Shown: piece after piece, positions 1 to 4,273 of the stretch
How positions within the stretch are numbered: position 1 is the stretch's first letter
How the letters are laid out: each line of letters starts with the position of its first letter
Origin: Qubevirus faecium
Sequence record: FJ539135.1
Direction: 5' to 3' (one strand)
Length of the DNA stretch: 4,273 nt
Translations under genes and position numbers: made by a program
The notes under the pieces: model-generated
What the model saw: only the letters and a program-made list of their open reading frames with translations
What the model was told of the DNA's origin: nothing
Databases searched by the model: none

Positions 1-28
1 GGGGTAGGCCCCGTAAGGGGCCTGCCTT
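1..28 (+). promoter_or_regulatory. 5'-terminal stem-loop of the genomic RNA (likely replication cis-element); genome begins GGGG
   Basis: Seen in sequence: a6-c12 (AGGCCCC) pairs with g17-t23 (GGGGCCU), closed by a GUAA (GNRA-type) tetraloop at 13-16. Extends by U5-G24 wobble, g4-c25, g3-c26 and possibly G-U pairs to nt 1-2/27-28. Levivirus plus strands characteristically start with a G-run folded in a stable hairpin. Confidence 0.6.
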
Positions 29-40
29 CACCGCACTACA

Positions 41-46
41 GAGGAG
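41..46 (+). promoter_or_regulatory. Shine-Dalgarno sequence for the maturation gene
   Basis: GAGGAG at 41-46, 5 nt upstream of the ATG at 52. Confidence 0.7.
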
Positions 47-51
47 AATCT

Positions 52-1404
52 ATGCCAACCCTTCCGAGAGGTCTTCGCTTCGGATCGAATGGCGAGGTCT
101 TAAACGACTTCGAGGCGCTCTGGTTTCCAGAGCGCCATACCGTAGATCTAAGCAATGGGACCTGCAAGCTCACTGGTTATATCACTAACCTGCCGGACTA
201 CAGCAACACATTCCCGAATAAGGGGGTCACTGTTGCTCGTACGCCGTACAGAAGTACTGTGCCTGTTAACCATCTCGGTTACCGGCCAGTTACAACTGTT
301 GAGTACATTCCCGACGGCACTTACGTGCGCCTTGATGGGCACGTGAAGTTCGAAGGGGGCTTGGTTAATGGGTCAGTTGATCTCACGAATTTCGTGATCT
401 CATTAGCTGCTCAGGGTGGCTTCGATTACCAGTCGGTAATCGGACCTAGGTTCTCTGCGCACTTCTCCGCGTTCAGCACCAAATATGGTGTCTTGCTCGG
501 AGAAGGGAGAGAAACTCTTAAGTATCTTCTCCTGCTGCTTCGCAGAATGCGTGAAGGGTACCGCGCCGTAAGGCGTGGCGATTTCAAGCGTCTCAGGAAT
601 GTGATCTCTACGTTCGAGCCGATCTCCCCGAGAGGGAAGATGGCAAGATCAGAGTTCTCACAGACCTATCGCGACAAACTTACCGGTAACAAGGTTAAAG
701 TTAAACCAAGTGAAGGTAAGTGGAATAGCAGTAGTGCGAGTGACCTGTGGCTAGAGTTCCGTTATGGACTGATGCCTTTGTTTTATGACATTCAGTCCGT
801 CATGGAAGACTTCATGCGTGTCCATAAGAAGATCGCAAAGATACAGCGATTCTCTGCCGGACACGGTAAGCTGGAGACGGTTAGTTCGCGGTTTTACCCG
901 GACGTCCACTTCGCTCTTGAGGTCACCGCAGTGTTACAGCGGCGTCATCGTTGGGGTGTCGTATACCAGGATACTGGTTCTTATGCCACTTTCAATAATG
1001 GTCGTCTAGTCCCGGTGAAGGACTGGAAGACAGCGGCGTTTGCACTCCTTAATCCCGCTGAAGTTGCGTGGGAGATCACTCCCTACAGCTTCGTTGTGGA
1101 TTGGTTTGTAAATGTTGGTGATATGCTTGAGCAGATGGGCCAGCTTTATCGGCACGTCGATGTCGTTGACGGTTTTGACCGGAAGGACATAAGGCTTAAG
1201 TCCATATCCGTACGCGTCTTGACTAGTGACAGTGCACACGTAGCTAGTTTTACTCTACGTCAAGCACGTTTGTTGCATAGTTATTATTCGCGCGTGCATA
1301 CCGTTGCGTTTCCGCAAATTTCACCACAACTCGATACTGAGATACGTAGCGTTAAGCACGTGATCGATAGTATCGCATTATTAACCCAGCGCGTTAAGCG
1401 CTGA
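52..1404 (+). CDS. A2: Maturation (A2) protein, 450 aa; likely also the lysis protein as in Qbeta
   Basis: ORF 52..1404 with ATG start and TGA stop at 1402-1404. N-terminus MPTLPRGLRFG...LNDF..LWFP and internal blocks (LWLEFRYGLMPLFYDI, EVAWEITPYSFVVDWFVNVGD, IVDGFDRKDIRLKS, LLTQRVKR at the C-terminus) match my recollection of Qbeta A2. First gene after the 5' UTR, as in leviviruses. Confidence 0.9.
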   Translation: MPTLPRGLRFGSNGEVLNDFEALWFPERHTVDLSNGTCKLTGYITNLPDYSNTFPNKGVTVARTPYRSTVPVNHLGYRPVTTVEYIPDGTYVRLDGHVKFEGGLVNGSVDLTNFVISLAAQGGFDYQSVIGPRFSAHFSAFSTKYGVLLGEGRETLKYLLLLLRRMREGYRAVRRGDFKRLRNVISTFEPISPRGKMARSEFSQTYRDKLTGNKVKVKPSEGKWNSSSASDLWLEFRYGLMPLFYDIQSVMEDFMRVHKKIAKIQRFSAGHGKLETVSSRFYPDVHFALEVTAVLQRRHRWGVVYQDTGSYATFNNGRLVPVKDWKTAAFALLNPAEVAWEITPYSFVVDWFVNVGDMLEQMGQLYRHVDVVDGFDRKDIRLKSISVRVLTSDSAHVASFTLRQARLLHSYYSRVHTVAFPQISPQLDTEIRSVKHVIDSIALLTQRVKR

Positions 1405-1423
1405 ACTTTGGGTCAATTTGATC

Positions 1424-1822
1424 ATGGCAAAATTAAATCAGGTAACTCTTTCCAAACTTGGAAAGAACGGGGATCAGACTTTAACTCTTACACCGCGCGG
1501 GGTAAACCCGACGAACGGCGTGGCGTCGCTGTCTGAAGCTGGAGCTGTTCCGGCTTTGGAAAAGCGCGTGACTGTGTCAGTCGCGCAGCCCTCCCGTAAC
1601 CGTAAGAACTTTAAAGTTCAGATTAAACTCCAAAACCCGACTGCATGCACGAAGGACGCATGTGACCCATCTGTGACGCGATCTGCTTTCGCAGATGTAA
1701 CGCTGTCGTTCACGTCATATTCTACTGACGCAGAACGTGCGCTAATTCGCACTGAGTTAGCGGCTCTGTTGCAGGATCCCTTGATTGTCGATGCGATTGA
1801 CAACCTGAATCCTGCCTACTGA
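1424..1822 (+). CDS. cp: Major coat protein, 132 aa including initiator Met
   Basis: ATG at 1424 gives MAKLNQVTLSKLGKNG...RGVNPTNGVASLS.AGAVPALEKRVTVS..QPSRNRKN.KVQ.K.QNPTAC...CDPSVTR...LNPAY, near-collinear with Qbeta coat as I recall it. Stop is TGA at 1820-1822. The ORF track's start at 1418 is a TTG two codons upstream; ATG 1424 is preferred by homology. Confidence 0.93.
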   Translation: MAKLNQVTLSKLGKNGDQTLTLTPRGVNPTNGVASLSEAGAVPALEKRVTVSVAQPSRNRKNFKVQIKLQNPTACTKDACDPSVTRSAFADVTLSFTSYSTDAERALIRTELAALLQDPLIVDAIDNLNPAY

Positions 1823-2419
1823 GCGGCGTTACTGGTAGCCTCGTCCGGCGGTGGGGATAACCCCTCAAAGCCAGACGTTCCGGATCTTCCAGACGTCAAA
1901 CCGCCCGACGGAACGGGGCGCTATACGTGCCCCTTCGCTTGTTACCGCCTCGGTAGTATTTACGAGGTGGGTAAGGACGGTTCTCCTGACATTTACGAAA
2001 GGGGAGACGAAGTCTCGGTTACTTTCGATTACGCTCTCGAGGATTTCCTTGGGAACACGAATTGGCGTAACTGGGATCAGCGATTGTCATCATATGACTT
2101 AGCTAATCGTCGTCGTTGCCGTGGCAACGGGTACATTGACTTAAACGCTACCGCGATGCAGTCAGACGAATGTGTTCTGTCTGGCCGCTACCCGGTACGT
2201 AAGGTCAAGTTTCCCGGCGCATTTGGCTCCATCAAGTATCTCTTGAACATTCAAGGTGATGCCTGGTTGGACTTATCCGAGGTGACAGCATACCGCTCCT
2301 ACGGAATGGTTATTGGTTTCTGGACAGACTCTAAAAGTCCGCAGCTACCAACCGATTTCACGCAGTTTAACAGTGCTAACTGCCCTGTACAGACGGTGAT
2401 AATCATACCCTCACTTTAA
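1424..2419 (+). CDS. A1: A1 read-through protein (coat plus C-terminal extension), about 331 aa, made by suppression of the coat UGA
   Basis: I read the frame codon by codon from 1823 to 1966: no stop. The tracked ORF 1967..2419 (GTG start) is in the same frame as coat (both start positions are 2 mod 3), so the frame is open from the UGA at 1820-1822 to TAA at 2417-2419. Extension (..SKPD.P..P....PP.GTG.YTCPF...GNGYIDL..PGAFG..VIGFW..) resembles the Qbeta A1 extension as recalled. Confidence 0.85.
1820..1822 (+). promoter_or_regulatory. Leaky UGA stop codon of coat (programmed read-through site)
   Basis: UGA at 1820-1822, followed by G and 198 in-frame sense codons. In Qbeta the coat UGA is read through at a few percent, by tRNA-Trp, to give A1 (established knowledge). 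Confidence 0.8.
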
Positions 2420-2428
2420 GCAACTTAA

Positions 2429-2433
2429 AGGAG
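2429..2433 (+). promoter_or_regulatory. Shine-Dalgarno sequence for the replicase gene
   Basis: AGGAG at 2429-2433, 5 nt upstream of the ATG at 2439. Confidence 0.75.
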
Positions 2434-2434
2434 A

Positions 2435-2454
2435 TAGCATGTCAAAGACAGCTA
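2435..2454 (+). promoter_or_regulatory. Translational operator hairpin (coat-protein binding site) enclosing the replicase start codon
   Basis: UAGCAUGUCAAAGACAGCUA folds as an 8-bp stem (2435-2438 with 2451-2454; 2440-2443 with 2447-2450), a single bulged A at 2439 and a 3-nt AAA loop at 2444-2446. This is the same architecture as the Qbeta operator (8-bp stem, bulged A, 3-nt loop). The AUG at 2439-2441 lies in the 5' arm. Confidence 0.8.
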
Positions 2455-4169
2455 GTCGCAGAAGAGAAATTACTCAGCTATTGGGTAAGGTCGACATCAA
2501 CTTCGAAGACGACATCCATATGTCTATTGCCAATGACCTCTGTGAGGCCTACGGCATCCCGATGCTTCGTGACGCTGAGGAGTGCATTAACACCGCATTC
2601 CCAAGCCTTGATCAGAGCGCAGACACGTTTCGTGTCGAGTACTTACGCGCCGAGATCCTATCGAAGTTTGACGGGCATCCTCTTGGTATTAATACCGAAG
2701 AAGCAGCATGGGAGAAATTCCTGGCTGCCGAGGAGGGTTGTAGACGTACGAACGAACGACTGTCACAAGCTAAGTACCATGATAATTCTATTTTATCGTG
2801 GGGTGAGCGCGTAATTCATACCGCTCGCCGAAAAATACTTAAGCTAATTGGCGAGTCCGTGCCGTTCGGGGATGTGGCGTTGCGTTGCCGTTTTTCCGGC
2901 GGTGCAACGACCTCGGTGAACCGTTTACACGGCCATCCGTCGTGGAAGCATGCCTGTCCGCAGGATGTTACCAAACGCGCACTCAAGTATCTGCAAGCCT
3001 TTAAACGGGCATGCGGTGACGTTGTAGATTTACGCGTCAACGAGGTGCGCACTTCAAATAAAGCAGTCACTGTTCCGAAGAATAGTAAGACTGATCGCTG
3101 TATCGCTATCGAACCCGGGTGGAATATGTTTTTTCAACTCGGTGTAGGTGCGGTGCTACGCGATAGGTTGCGCTTATGGAAGATTGATCTTAATGACCAA
3201 TCGACCAATCAGCGTCTCGCGCGGGATGGGTCTCTGCTAAATCATTTAGCTACCATAGACTTATCCGCAGCCAGTGATTCGATAAGCTTAAAGCTAGTTG
3301 AATTGCTGCTCCCTCCTGAATGGTACGACCTTTTAACGGATCTCCGATCCGATCAAGGCGTTTTACCTGATGGACGAGTTGTGACCTATGAGAAAATATC
3401 CTCCATGGGAAATGGCTACACTTTCGAGCTTGAGTCGCTTATTTTCGCGGCGCTCGCAAGAAGTGTGTGCGAGTTACTAGAAATCGACCAATCTACTGTT
3501 AGCGTGTACGGGGATGATATAATCATCGACACTCGTGCCGCAGCTCCATTAATGGATGTCTTCGAATACGTTGGGTTTACGCCTAACAAGAAGAAAACGT
3601 TCTGCGATGGACCCTTCCGCGAATCGTGCGGTAAGCACTGGTTCCAAGGGGTAGATGTAACGCCCTTTTACATACGCCGACCAATTCGTTGCCTTGCTGA
3701 TATGATACTCGTTTTGAATAGTATCTACAGATGGGGCACTGTTGATGGCGTGTGGGATCCTAGAGCACTGACCGTATACGAAAAGTATCTCAAATTGCTG
3801 CCAAGAAATTGGCGACGCAACCGGATACCGGACGGCTACGGAGACGGAGCTCTCGTCGGATTGGCTACGACGAACCCGTTCGTTATAGTTAAGAATTATT
3901 CAAGACTATACCCGGTATTAGTTGAAGTCCAGAGGGACGTCAAGCGCAGCGAGGTAGGTAGTTATCTGTACTCCCTACTCCGCAATCGCGAGACACGTTA
4001 CAGTCCTTTCCTGCGTGACGCAGATAGGACTGGTTTTGATGAAGCGCCGCTAGCTACTAGCCTTCGTCGCAAGACAGGTCGGTACAAAGTAGCGTGGATT
4101 CAGGACAGTGCCTTCATCCGGCCCCCGTATTTCATTACGGGCATTCCCGAGGTGAAGCTTGCAAGCTAG
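2439..4169 (+). CDS. rep: RNA-dependent RNA polymerase (replicase beta subunit), 576 aa
   Basis: ORF 2439..4169, stop TAG at 4167-4169. N-terminus MSKTAS as in Qbeta replicase. Conserved blocks include CRFSGGATT, NKAVTVPKNSKTDRCIAIEPGWNMFFQLG, LATIDLSAASDSISL, VTYEKISSMGNGYTFELESLIFA, the catalytic YGDDII at 3507-3524 (GDD at 3510-3518), FRESCGKH, VDVTPFYIR and IPDGYGDGALVG. Confidence 0.95.
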   Translation: MSKTASRRREITQLLGKVDINFEDDIHMSIANDLCEAYGIPMLRDAEECINTAFPSLDQSADTFRVEYLRAEILSKFDGHPLGINTEEAAWEKFLAAEEGCRRTNERLSQAKYHDNSILSWGERVIHTARRKILKLIGESVPFGDVALRCRFSGGATTSVNRLHGHPSWKHACPQDVTKRALKYLQAFKRACGDVVDLRVNEVRTSNKAVTVPKNSKTDRCIAIEPGWNMFFQLGVGAVLRDRLRLWKIDLNDQSTNQRLARDGSLLNHLATIDLSAASDSISLKLVELLLPPEWYDLLTDLRSDQGVLPDGRVVTYEKISSMGNGYTFELESLIFAALARSVCELLEIDQSTVSVYGDDIIIDTRAAAPLMDVFEYVGFTPNKKKTFCDGPFRESCGKHWFQGVDVTPFYIRRPIRCLADMILVLNSIYRWGTVDGVWDPRALTVYEKYLKLLPRNWRRNRIPDGYGDGALVGLATTNPFVIVKNYSRLYPVLVEVQRDVKRSEVGSYLYSLLRNRETRYSPFLRDADRTGFDEAPLATSLRRKTGRYKVAWIQDSAFIRPPYFITGIPEVKLAS

Positions 4170-4189
4170 ACACTAGCTTGTGATGGGAA

Positions 4190-4208
4190 GGGCGGTCTTT
4201 GACCGCCC
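4190..4208 (+). other. 3'-UTR stem-loop 1 (8-bp GC-rich stem, UUU loop)
   Basis: GGGCGGUC (4190-4197) pairs with GACCGCCC (4201-4208) around loop UUU at 4198-4200. Located 21 nt after the replicase stop. Confidence 0.6.
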
Positions 4209-4228
4209 GAGAGGAGAAAGAAAGAAAA
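4209..4228 (+). other. 20-nt uninterrupted polypurine, A-rich linker in the 3' UTR (candidate host-factor binding site)
   Basis: GAGAGGAGAAAGAAAGAAAA is purine-only and sits between the two 3' hairpins. Confidence 0.5.
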
Positions 4229-4239
4229 CTCCCCTCAGT

Positions 4240-4267
4240 GAGGGTGGGCTCTGCTTTGCCCACTCTC
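4240..4267 (+). other. 3'-terminal stem-loop 2 (about 10 bp, 8-nt loop), followed by a single-stranded CUCCCA tail
   Basis: 4240-4249 (GAGGGUGGGC) pairs with 4258-4267 (GCCCACUCUC) with one G-U wobble; loop at 4250-4257. The genome ends ...CUCCUCCCA-3', the characteristic levivirus CCCA terminus. Confidence 0.6.
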
Positions 4268-4273
4268 CTCCCA

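Follow-up and report, generated by a model that had tools for sequence, protein, structure and literature searches.

An almost certainly full-length plus-strand RNA coliphage genome of Qubevirus faecium, a sister strain of BR1

Genogroup IV of the F-RNA coliphages includes the named members SP, FI, NL95, BR1, BR8, HB-P22 and HB-P24. The nearest of the sequenced members to the 4273-nt stretch of DNA analyzed here, which we call the window, is FI strain BR1 (FJ539134), which equals it in length, gene coordinates, 5′ UTR, 3′ UTR and both intergenic regions, and whose proteins are 96.4–97.4% identical to those of the window, A2 being at 96.4%. SP (X07489 / NC_004301), the genogroup IV type strain, agrees in gene order and protein lengths (450, 132, 330 and 576 aa) at 94–97% protein identity, but is 3 nt longer (4276 nt), the extra bases lying in the 5′ hairpin region, and in X07489 has a C-A mismatch at one pair of the operator hairpin. 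Qbeta (Qubevirus durum, genogroup III) shares the four-product plan, the UGA read-through, the architecture of the operator hairpin, the 3′-terminal sequence apart from base 4262, the pseudoknot partners and the replicase catalytic motifs. Its proteins are nevertheless far more distant (A2 47%, coat 77%, read-through extension 44%, replicase 57% identity), its A2 is 30 residues shorter (420 aa), its replicase 13 residues longer (589 aa), and its 5′ UTR spans 60 nt rather than 51 nt. More remote still are the MS2/GA-type phages (Emesvirus, formerly Levivirus genogroups I–II). They belong with the window to the Fiersviridae; their genes too run maturation, coat, replicase, their replicase start likewise carries a coat-operator hairpin, and their RNA also ends in CCA-3′. 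MS2-type phages possess a separate overlapping lysis gene and lack a read-through protein, whereas the window contains a read-through domain and no conserved overlapping ORF.

Against this background, the window is almost certainly a full-length plus-strand ssRNA genome of an F-specific coliphage, Qubevirus faecium, written in DNA letters and working in the manner of Qbeta:

1–4273, plus strand: almost certainly the complete plus-strand genome of Qubevirus faecium (gap-free alignment with FJ539134; exact proteins)

An earlier note, made from the letters alone, had proposed a complete Qbeta-like ssRNA phage genome that BLAST against levivirus genomes should recover. BLAST returns an end-to-end, gap-free Qubevirus match: positions 1–4273 of BR1 align with 1–4273 of the window at 95.1% nucleotide identity, which is also the best nucleotide match in the INPHARED phage collection. 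SP follows at 91.2–91.3%, and NL95, FI, HB-P22 and HB-P24 at 76.5–83%. Three proteins—A2, coat and replicase—are residue-for-residue ACT66761, ACT66762 and ACT66764, filed at NCBI under Qubevirus faecium on a 4273-nt record. By sequence, then, the species is Qubevirus faecium (former Allolevivirus genogroup IV, SP/FI/NL95 type) in the family Fiersviridae, and the window is a sister strain of BR1. Its strain name is probably BR8, as suggested by the consecutive protein accessions and a published strain list for genogroup IV (PMC6963950). The length, too, sits where the earlier note placed it, in the allolevivirus size range, the shortest complete record of the genus being Qbeta at 4217 nt and the longest SP at 4276 nt. 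DNA letters themselves cannot reveal RNA; that the molecule is RNA in vivo follows from its membership of the Fiersviridae, and homology to characterized phages suggests that this ssRNA would be packaged in a T=3 capsid and would infect via the F pilus.

The coding content is compact, with every gene on the plus strand:

52–1404, plus strand: A2 maturation protein gene, 450 aa (Pfam PF03863 Phage_mat-A, 7.8e-86)
1405–1423 and 2420–2438: intergenic gaps of 19 nt each, from ORF coordinates
1424–1822, plus strand: coat protein gene, 132 aa, UGA stop at 1820–1822 (Pfam PF01819 Levi_coat, 1.2e-56)
1424–2419, plus strand: A1 read-through gene, the coat plus a 198-codon extension at 1823–2416, with TAA at 2417–2419
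2439–4169, plus strand: gene for the replicase beta-subunit (RNA-dependent RNA polymerase), 576 aa (Pfam PF03431 RNA_replicase_B, 9.5e-256)

The proposed gene order of A2, coat, A1 read-through and replicase is thus borne out by four Pfam families in that sequence, the third being PF16814 Read-through (4.7e-49), which falls in the A1 extension, an open frame in phase with the coat. The PDB homologs of all four are Qbeta proteins: A2 matches 5vlz (1.9e-119), with a weak match to the MS2 maturation protein 5tc1 (2.5e-11), the coat matches 5kip (2.8e-64), the A1 domain 3rlc (5.9e-49) and the replicase 3mmp (1.4e-203). Within the replicase, DLSAASDS at residue 274 and YGDD at 357 occupy positions equal to those in Qbeta and correspond to catalytic Asp273/358/359 (PMC4200798). 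In the A1 extension, 25 of the 31 differences from BR1 fall at third codon positions, so the read-through frame is under coding constraint. The coat gene stops at UGA in eight of eight genomes, in contrast to the three remaining stop codons, which vary; from the Qbeta and SP literature this UGA is predicted to be leaky, at a read-through level comparable to theirs. A local hairpin stimulating read-through is unsupported, with the fold of the UGA region (1805–1850) no better than shuffles (z +1.24). The idea of a hidden lysis or other overlapping gene was rejected, since of the five overlapping plus-strand ORFs (42–95 aa) not one is open across the genogroup. ARAGORN found no tRNA or tmRNA.

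Structured untranslated regions flank these genes:

1–51, plus strand: 5′ UTR, with a 5′-terminal hairpin at 2–27 (11 bp, GUAA loop) and the A2 Shine-Dalgarno GAGGAG at 41–46
4170–4273, plus strand: 3′ UTR, with hairpins at 4190–4208, 4209–4236 and 4240–4267 and an enclosing helix 4184–4188/4269–4273

The lengths agree with those first noted (51 nt at the 5′ end, 104 nt at the 3′ end, 19 nt for each gap), as do the hallmark levivirus termini. The window opens with GGGG and closes with CCCA at 4270–4273, its end reading CUCCUCCCA, and it begins and ends at the same bases as the complete references BR1, HB-P22, HB-P24, NL95, SP and Qbeta. The 5′ UTR, the same in BR1 and nearly the same in HB-P22, HB-P24 and NL95, folds at −26 kcal/mol (z −3.3). 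The 3′ UTR folds at −51.8 kcal/mol (z −5.1), a value reached by none of 200 shuffles, and its consensus structure across six genomes keeps six pairs by double changes; the terminal helix 4184–4188/4269–4273 is invariant, such that covariation speaks neither for nor against it. The last 24 nt are shared exactly by BR1, SP, NL95 and HB-P24, with Qbeta and HB-P22 differing solely at 4262 (A to T). A role for the genome termini has been described (PMC4200798).

Beyond the termini, RNA elements were assessed by folding against shuffles and by covariation, with two binding regions transferred from the annotation of SP (X07489), where they lie at 1331–1443 ("replicase binding region s") and 2629–2956 ("replicase binding region m"):

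1328–1440, plus strand: replicase binding region S (S-site), which runs across the start of the coat gene; constant −3 offset from the SP record
2435–2454, plus strand: translational operator hairpin of the replicase, 8-bp stem, bulged A2439, 3-nt loop AAA at 2444–2446
2626–2953, plus strand: replicase binding region M (M-site); −3 offset from the SP record
3060–3066, plus strand: AAAGCAG, upstream partner of a long-range pseudoknot, pairing with the 3′ hairpin loop

The operator places its bulged A2439 as the A of the replicase AUG, with a Shine-Dalgarno sequence (AAGGAG, 2428–2433) close upstream. The hairpin is the MFE structure (z −2.6), 97.9% of its cells are paired across seven genomes against 17–48% in slid controls, and pairs 2435/2454 and 2436/2453 are kept by compensatory changes among those genomes. 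By analogy with Qbeta and SP, it would be bound by coat protein. In the S-site, the runs 1407–1418 and 1420–1428 are invariant in eight genomes including Qbeta, and the coat start region (1400–1445) folds no better than shuffles (z +0.35). For the M-site, a role in minus-strand initiation has been described (PMC4200798). For the pseudoknot, 3060–3066 can form seven Watson-Crick pairs with CUGCUUU at 4251–4257, in the loop UCUGCUUU at 4250–4257. The run 3057–3067 is invariant in eight of eight genomes, including three synonymous sites, against a background of about 20% invariant third positions in the replicase gene; with both partners invariant, covariation can neither support nor refute the pairing. 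An Rfam scan (E ≤ 1, both strands) returned no family, which means just that no Rfam family fits. Taken as a set, the operator, the 5′ hairpin and the 3′ domain beat shuffles and keep pairs by compensatory changes, which bears out the view that the hairpins are RNA regulatory structures. The accompanying claim that they are not DNA terminators also holds, with promoter- and terminator-like DNA sites at chance level.

Comparison with BR1 offers a view of how the genome varies. The two differ by 211 substitutions and no indels, yielding 41 amino-acid changes; 163 of the differences lie at third codon positions, 171 are transitions against 40 transversions, and none falls in the 193 non-coding nucleotides. 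Such a pattern is that of a natural strain under purifying selection. The amino-acid changes cluster at A2 residues 191–197 and replicase residues 35–111, and three short runs in the replicase gene (3666–3676, 3753–3763 and 3852–3861), in addition to the known one at 3057–3067, show no variation between two Qubevirus species, even at synonymous sites. It is doubtful, although conceivable, that these runs might represent undescribed RNA elements—serving long-range RNA interactions or protein binding—and that adaptation, in how the pilus is used or the template recognized, might lie behind the divergent clusters in A2 191–197 and in the N-terminus/M-site region of the replicase.

Other readings of the window deserve weighing, beginning with the possibility that it belongs to Qbeta proper (Qubevirus durum, genogroup III). 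The genus architecture, Pfam families and terminal sequences would all agree with this, and over 300 nt around the coat start the two agree at 75% of positions, yet globally the window shares only about 60% nucleotide identity with Qbeta, as compared with 76.5–95.1% to the genogroup IV genomes, protein identities span 44–77%, and the 450-aa A2 has the length found in SP and BR1 rather than Qbeta's 420 aa. The likelihood of this reading is negligible, and the same figures qualify the earlier description: "complete" stands, whereas "Qbeta-like" is right for the genus and wrong for the species. Somewhat less remote, but still very improbable, is the reading that the strain had not been sequenced before, or that it arose by recombination among genogroup IV lineages. 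That the best INPHARED match reaches just 95.1%, and that no IMG/VR sequence contains, letter for letter, a 30-mer taken from the window, could favor an unsequenced strain, but A2, coat and replicase already stand, without a single residue changed, on a 4273-nt record. Recombination or mosaicism was rejected: BR1 stays evenly close over the whole length (88–100% identity per 200 nt), and it is the top reference in 21 of 22 200-nt windows, with SP tying at 1001–1200 and no breakpoint.

The remaining alternative is that the window is a DNA copy, whether a cDNA clone or an insertion in a chromosome or plasmid, and that its ends are clone or assembly boundaries. Primers are sometimes the source of the outermost ~20 nt in published levivirus genomes, the sequence is in DNA letters, and its UTRs are 100% identical to those of BR1. 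Set against this, the window matches none of 5,426 complete E. coli genomes and 72,556 plasmids, in keeping with the expectation that it would neither hit bacterial chromosomal DNA nor lie within a larger replicon. No vector or flanking sequence is present, because the window starts and stops exactly on the canonical GGGG and CCCA, and promoters or terminators of the DNA type are no more frequent than expected by chance. In metagenomes, the replicase has only distant relatives among the matches listed (≤46% aa identity), and all 80 of these sit on contigs of 1.9–4.4 kb; such sizes place relatives on contigs of ≤4.4 kb and say nothing on termini. We consider a DNA copy as improbable as a strain of Qbeta proper, and retain the reading of a full-length Qubevirus faecium RNA genome.

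Read as such a genome, the window suggests a life cycle along familiar lines. The genomic RNA would itself serve as mRNA for the four products. In Qbeta, A2 binds the F pilus and lyses the host by blocking MurA; the A2 encoded here is the maturation protein and by homology would likewise bind the pilus and effect lysis, with MurA inhibition presumed from the Qbeta literature. The coat is the major capsid protein, and A1 would arise from occasional ribosomal read-through of the coat UGA. The replicase beta-subunit would join host EF-Tu, EF-Ts and S1 and, if recruitment proceeds as the Qbeta and SP literature indicates, the S and M sites and the pseudoknot (3060–3066 with 4251–4257) would deliver the 3′ end to the enzyme, which would initiate de novo at the penultimate C of the CCA-3′ end. 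Late in infection, coat dimers would occupy the hairpin at the replicase AUG and turn off replicase translation.

As biology, the record brings nothing new. These genomes were reportedly described by Friedman et al. in 2009, the present one is already deposited in GenBank, and neither in architecture nor in regulatory RNA elements does it depart from what is known of Qbeta and SP. Genogroup IV F-RNA coliphages serve as markers for animal fecal pollution in water (PMC6963950). The identification governs how the window is to be interpreted: its hairpins, stop-codon read-through, short intergenic gaps and absence of promoters are to be read as features of a plus-strand RNA phage and not of bacterial DNA.

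The window begins with GGGG and ends with CUCCUCCCA, and three long ORFs lie on its + strand; the longest ORF on the minus strand is 84 aa. Beyond its TGA, the coat frame stays open for 198 more codons, to a TAA at 2417-2419. The UTR and gap lengths in the earlier note (51, 19, 19 and 104 nt) were reproduced exactly from the ORF coordinates, and the gene set it proposed—A2, coat, A1 read-through and replicase—corresponds to four matching Pfam families.

Features of the window, with Pfam matches
1-51, + strand: 5' UTR, 51 nt
2-27, + strand: 5' hairpin, 11-bp stem with GUAA loop (-26 kcal/mol, z -3.3)
52-1404, + strand: A2 (maturation protein) ORF, 450 aa; Phage_mat-A, 7.8e-86
1328-1440, + strand: S-site (replicase binding region), from the annotation of SP 1331-1443 at a constant 3-nt offset
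1405-1423 and 2420-2438, + strand: intergenic gaps, 19 nt each
1424-1822, + strand: coat ORF, 132 aa counted from the ATG, TGA stop; Levi_coat, 1.2e-56; its A1 extension, Read-through, 4.7e-49
2435-2454, + strand: replicase operator, predicted hairpin with covariation
2439-4169, + strand: replicase ORF, 576 aa; RNA_replicase_B, 9.5e-256
2626-2953, + strand: M-site (replicase binding region), from the annotation of SP 2629-2956 at the same 3-nt offset
4170-4273, + strand: 3' UTR, 104 nt
4184-4188/4269-4273, + strand: helix of the 3' UTR fold, enclosing three hairpins (-51.8 kcal/mol, z -5.1)

A megablast search of 50,697 phage records returned 46 matches, every one of them Qubevirus, Qbeta or SP. 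The complete genome of BR1 (FJ539134, Enterobacteria phage FI strain, Qubevirus faecium, 4273 nt) matched end to end in a single alignment (1-4273 to 1-4273) at 95.1%; complete SP genomes stood at 91%, HB-P22, NL95, HB-P24 and FI at 77.7-82.8%, and the Qbeta match was limited to ~300 nt around the coat start (1352-1650) at 75%. An eight-genome MAFFT alignment gave 95.1% to BR1, gap-free, 91.2% to SP and 60% to Qbeta. All four CDS coordinates are shared with BR1, and protein identities to BR1 are 96.4% (A2), 97.0% (coat), 97.0% (read-through extension) and 97.4% (replicase), versus 47%, 77%, 44% and 57% to Qbeta. Since BR1 was the closest reference in 21 of 22 200-nt windows and tied with SP in the other, comparison of these windows across the reference genomes gave no sign of recombination. 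These nucleotide and protein identities, high to BR1 and SP and low to Qbeta, place the window by sequence in the genogroup IV (SP/FI type) alloleviviruses, not in Qbeta's own species. The description "Qbeta-like genome" is correct in kind, but is refined to genogroup IV, Qubevirus faecium, rather than Qbeta proper, at ~60% nucleotide identity.

The claim of a complete genome likewise held, as neither a bacterial DNA match nor a larger replicon was found among E. coli genomes, plasmids or metagenome relatives. The first and last bases coincide with those of complete reference genomes, and the ends agree base for base: the first 30 nt are the same in BR1 and HB-P22, and the last 30 nt in BR1, SP, NL95 and HB-P24. 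Searches of 5,426 complete E. coli genomes and 72,556 plasmids gave no match. A JGI metagenome scan with the replicase yielded only distant relatives (at most 46% amino-acid identity), encoded by at least 589 stretches; the best 80 of these are 36-46% identical and lie on contigs of 1.9-4.4 kb, with no larger replicon and no close genogroup IV relative among these 80 loci. Sigma-70 promoter-like sites (2 versus 3.6 expected) and terminator-like sites (4 versus 4.0) occur in the window at chance frequency.

This genome is already known and deposited. Its A2, coat and replicase exactly match NCBI ACT66761.1, ACT66762.1 and ACT66764.1, all labelled Qubevirus faecium and all encoded on a single 4273-nt contig, and because the BR1 proteins (ACT66757-ACT66760) immediately precede these accessions, it appears to be the next record of the BR1 submission. 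Published genogroup IV strains are SP, FI, BR1, BR8, HB-P22, HB-P24 and NL95 (PMC6963950, Table 1). As every one of these other than BR8 differs from the window, it is most probably BR8, a creek-water isolate, a name that we infer. The FI record (EF068134, 4184 nt), although titled "complete genome", is not terminally complete, because its 5' end is short by ~36 nt and its 3' end by ~14 nt when set against the other genomes; its replicase annotation is 586 aa, 10 aa longer, with a TGA stop.

Between the window and BR1 there are 211 differences (171 transitions, 40 transversions), 163 of them at third codon positions, and amino-acid changes are confined to 41 codons; the pattern points to natural divergence under selection. 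None of the differences falls in the 193 non-coding nt (1-51, 1405-1423, 2420-2438 and 4170-4273), where ~9.5 would be expected at the genome-wide rate of 4.9% (probability of zero, ~6e-5); at the first and second codon position rate of 1.8%, that probability is ~0.03. This invariance would reflect either strong constraint at the RNA level, holding the untranslated regions no less tightly than coding positions, or extreme ends that derive in part from primers in the deposited records. Amino-acid replacements relative to BR1 cluster within genes: five of 16 in A2 fall in residues 191-197 (window 622-645), and 11 of 15 in the replicase in residues 35-111 (window 2541-2771), overlapping the start of the M-site region. 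Identity to BR1 is lowest, at 88%, in 2601-2800.

RNA folding and covariation delineate several elements. The operator hairpin comprises four lower pairs (U2435-A2454, A2436-U2453, G2437-C2452, C2438-G2451), a bulged A2439 that is the A of the replicase AUG, and four upper pairs (U2440-A2450, G2441-C2449, U2442-A2448, C2443-G2447) closing the loop A2444-A2446. With seven genomes aligned, the partners pair in 97.9% of cells, versus 17-48% when they are slid, and the two outer pairs are preserved by compensatory exchanges, U-A becoming A-U and A-U becoming U-A. The architecture is the same as in the aligned Qbeta sequence AUGCAUGUCUAAGACAGCAU, known as the site at which coat protein binds to repress translation of the replicase. 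SP (X07489) has C at 2445 (window 2442), where all other genomes have U; the resulting C-A mismatch is the one break in a helix that is conserved everywhere else, and may be peculiar to that strain or an early error in sequencing. None of 200 shuffles folded as well as the 3' UTR, and RNAalifold on six genomes retained its design, with six pairs held by double changes, mainly in the hairpin 4190-4208.

The loop of the last 3' hairpin, UCUGCUUU (4250-4257), can form seven Watson-Crick pairs with AAAGCAG (3060-3066), within the replicase gene and 1185 nt upstream. This predicted pseudoknot matches the long-range Qbeta pseudoknot described by Klovins and van Duin, as cited in PMC4200798 (its refs 66 and 67). 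The runs holding the partners, 3057-3067 and 4250-4259, are invariant in all eight genomes and rank within the five longest runs of this kind; in the replicase gene, just 20% of third positions show no variation. With no variation in the pairs themselves, covariation neither supports nor refutes the pairing. Three other replicase-gene runs of 10-11 nt (3666-3676, 3753-3763 and 3852-3861), equal in length to 3057-3067, are invariant in all eight genomes including Qbeta, synonymous sites too; they may be further RNA structural elements, or merely conserved residues. The coat ribosome-binding region 1407-1434 (UUUGGGUCAAUU.GAUCAUGGC), within the annotated S-site, is the most conserved genome stretch between genogroups III and IV, with no local structure predicted there (z +0.35).

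Solved-structure homologues of the window's proteins are Qbeta proteins in every case: 3mmp, 4r71 and 3agp for the replicase (~1e-203), 5vlz and 5mnt for A2 (~1e-119), 5kip and 1qbe for the coat (~1e-64), and 3rlc for the A1 read-through domain (5.9e-49). In the replicase, the motifs DLSAASDS (residue 274) and YGDD (residue 357) sit at the residue numbers they have in Qbeta, and are the counterparts of catalytic Asp273, Asp358 and Asp359 of its replicase (PMC4200798). The coat stop is UGA in all eight genomes, while the stops of A2, A1 and replicase differ between genomes (TGA, TAA or TAG), consistent with selection for a leaky stop; a local fold just after the coat UGA was unsupported (z +1.2).

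None of five candidate overlapping + strand ORFs (42-95 aa) remains unbroken throughout the genogroup, which agrees with the allolevivirus plan, in which A2 would serve lysis with no dedicated L protein. In Qbeta, lysis is caused by A2. One ORF, 1851-2102 (+ strand, 83 aa, beginning at a GTG and outside the A1 frame), is intact in the window, BR1, SP and FI and interrupted in NL95, HB-P22, HB-P24 and Qbeta; being unconserved across the genogroup, it is probably fortuitous. Another, 785-1009 (+ strand, 74 aa), was rejected as a gene: its ATG is unique to the window, with ACG in all other genogroup IV genomes and an early stop in most.

Alongside the directly observed genome identity, gene set, termini, covarying folds and catalytic motifs, a mechanism can be sketched by analogy with Qbeta and SP. 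The genome RNA would act as mRNA, with A1 arising from ~5% UGA read-through (a figure from the NL95 and FI record notes), and coat dimers binding the operator would repress replicase translation. The replicase beta-subunit, joined by EF-Tu, EF-Ts and S1, would start copying de novo from the penultimate C of CCA-3', with the terminal A added without template (PMC4200798); M-site binding and long-range interactions would carry the RNA's 3' end into the active site, and A2 would mediate pilus attachment and lysis. The value of the identification is that it supplies the right frame for interpreting the other features of the window.
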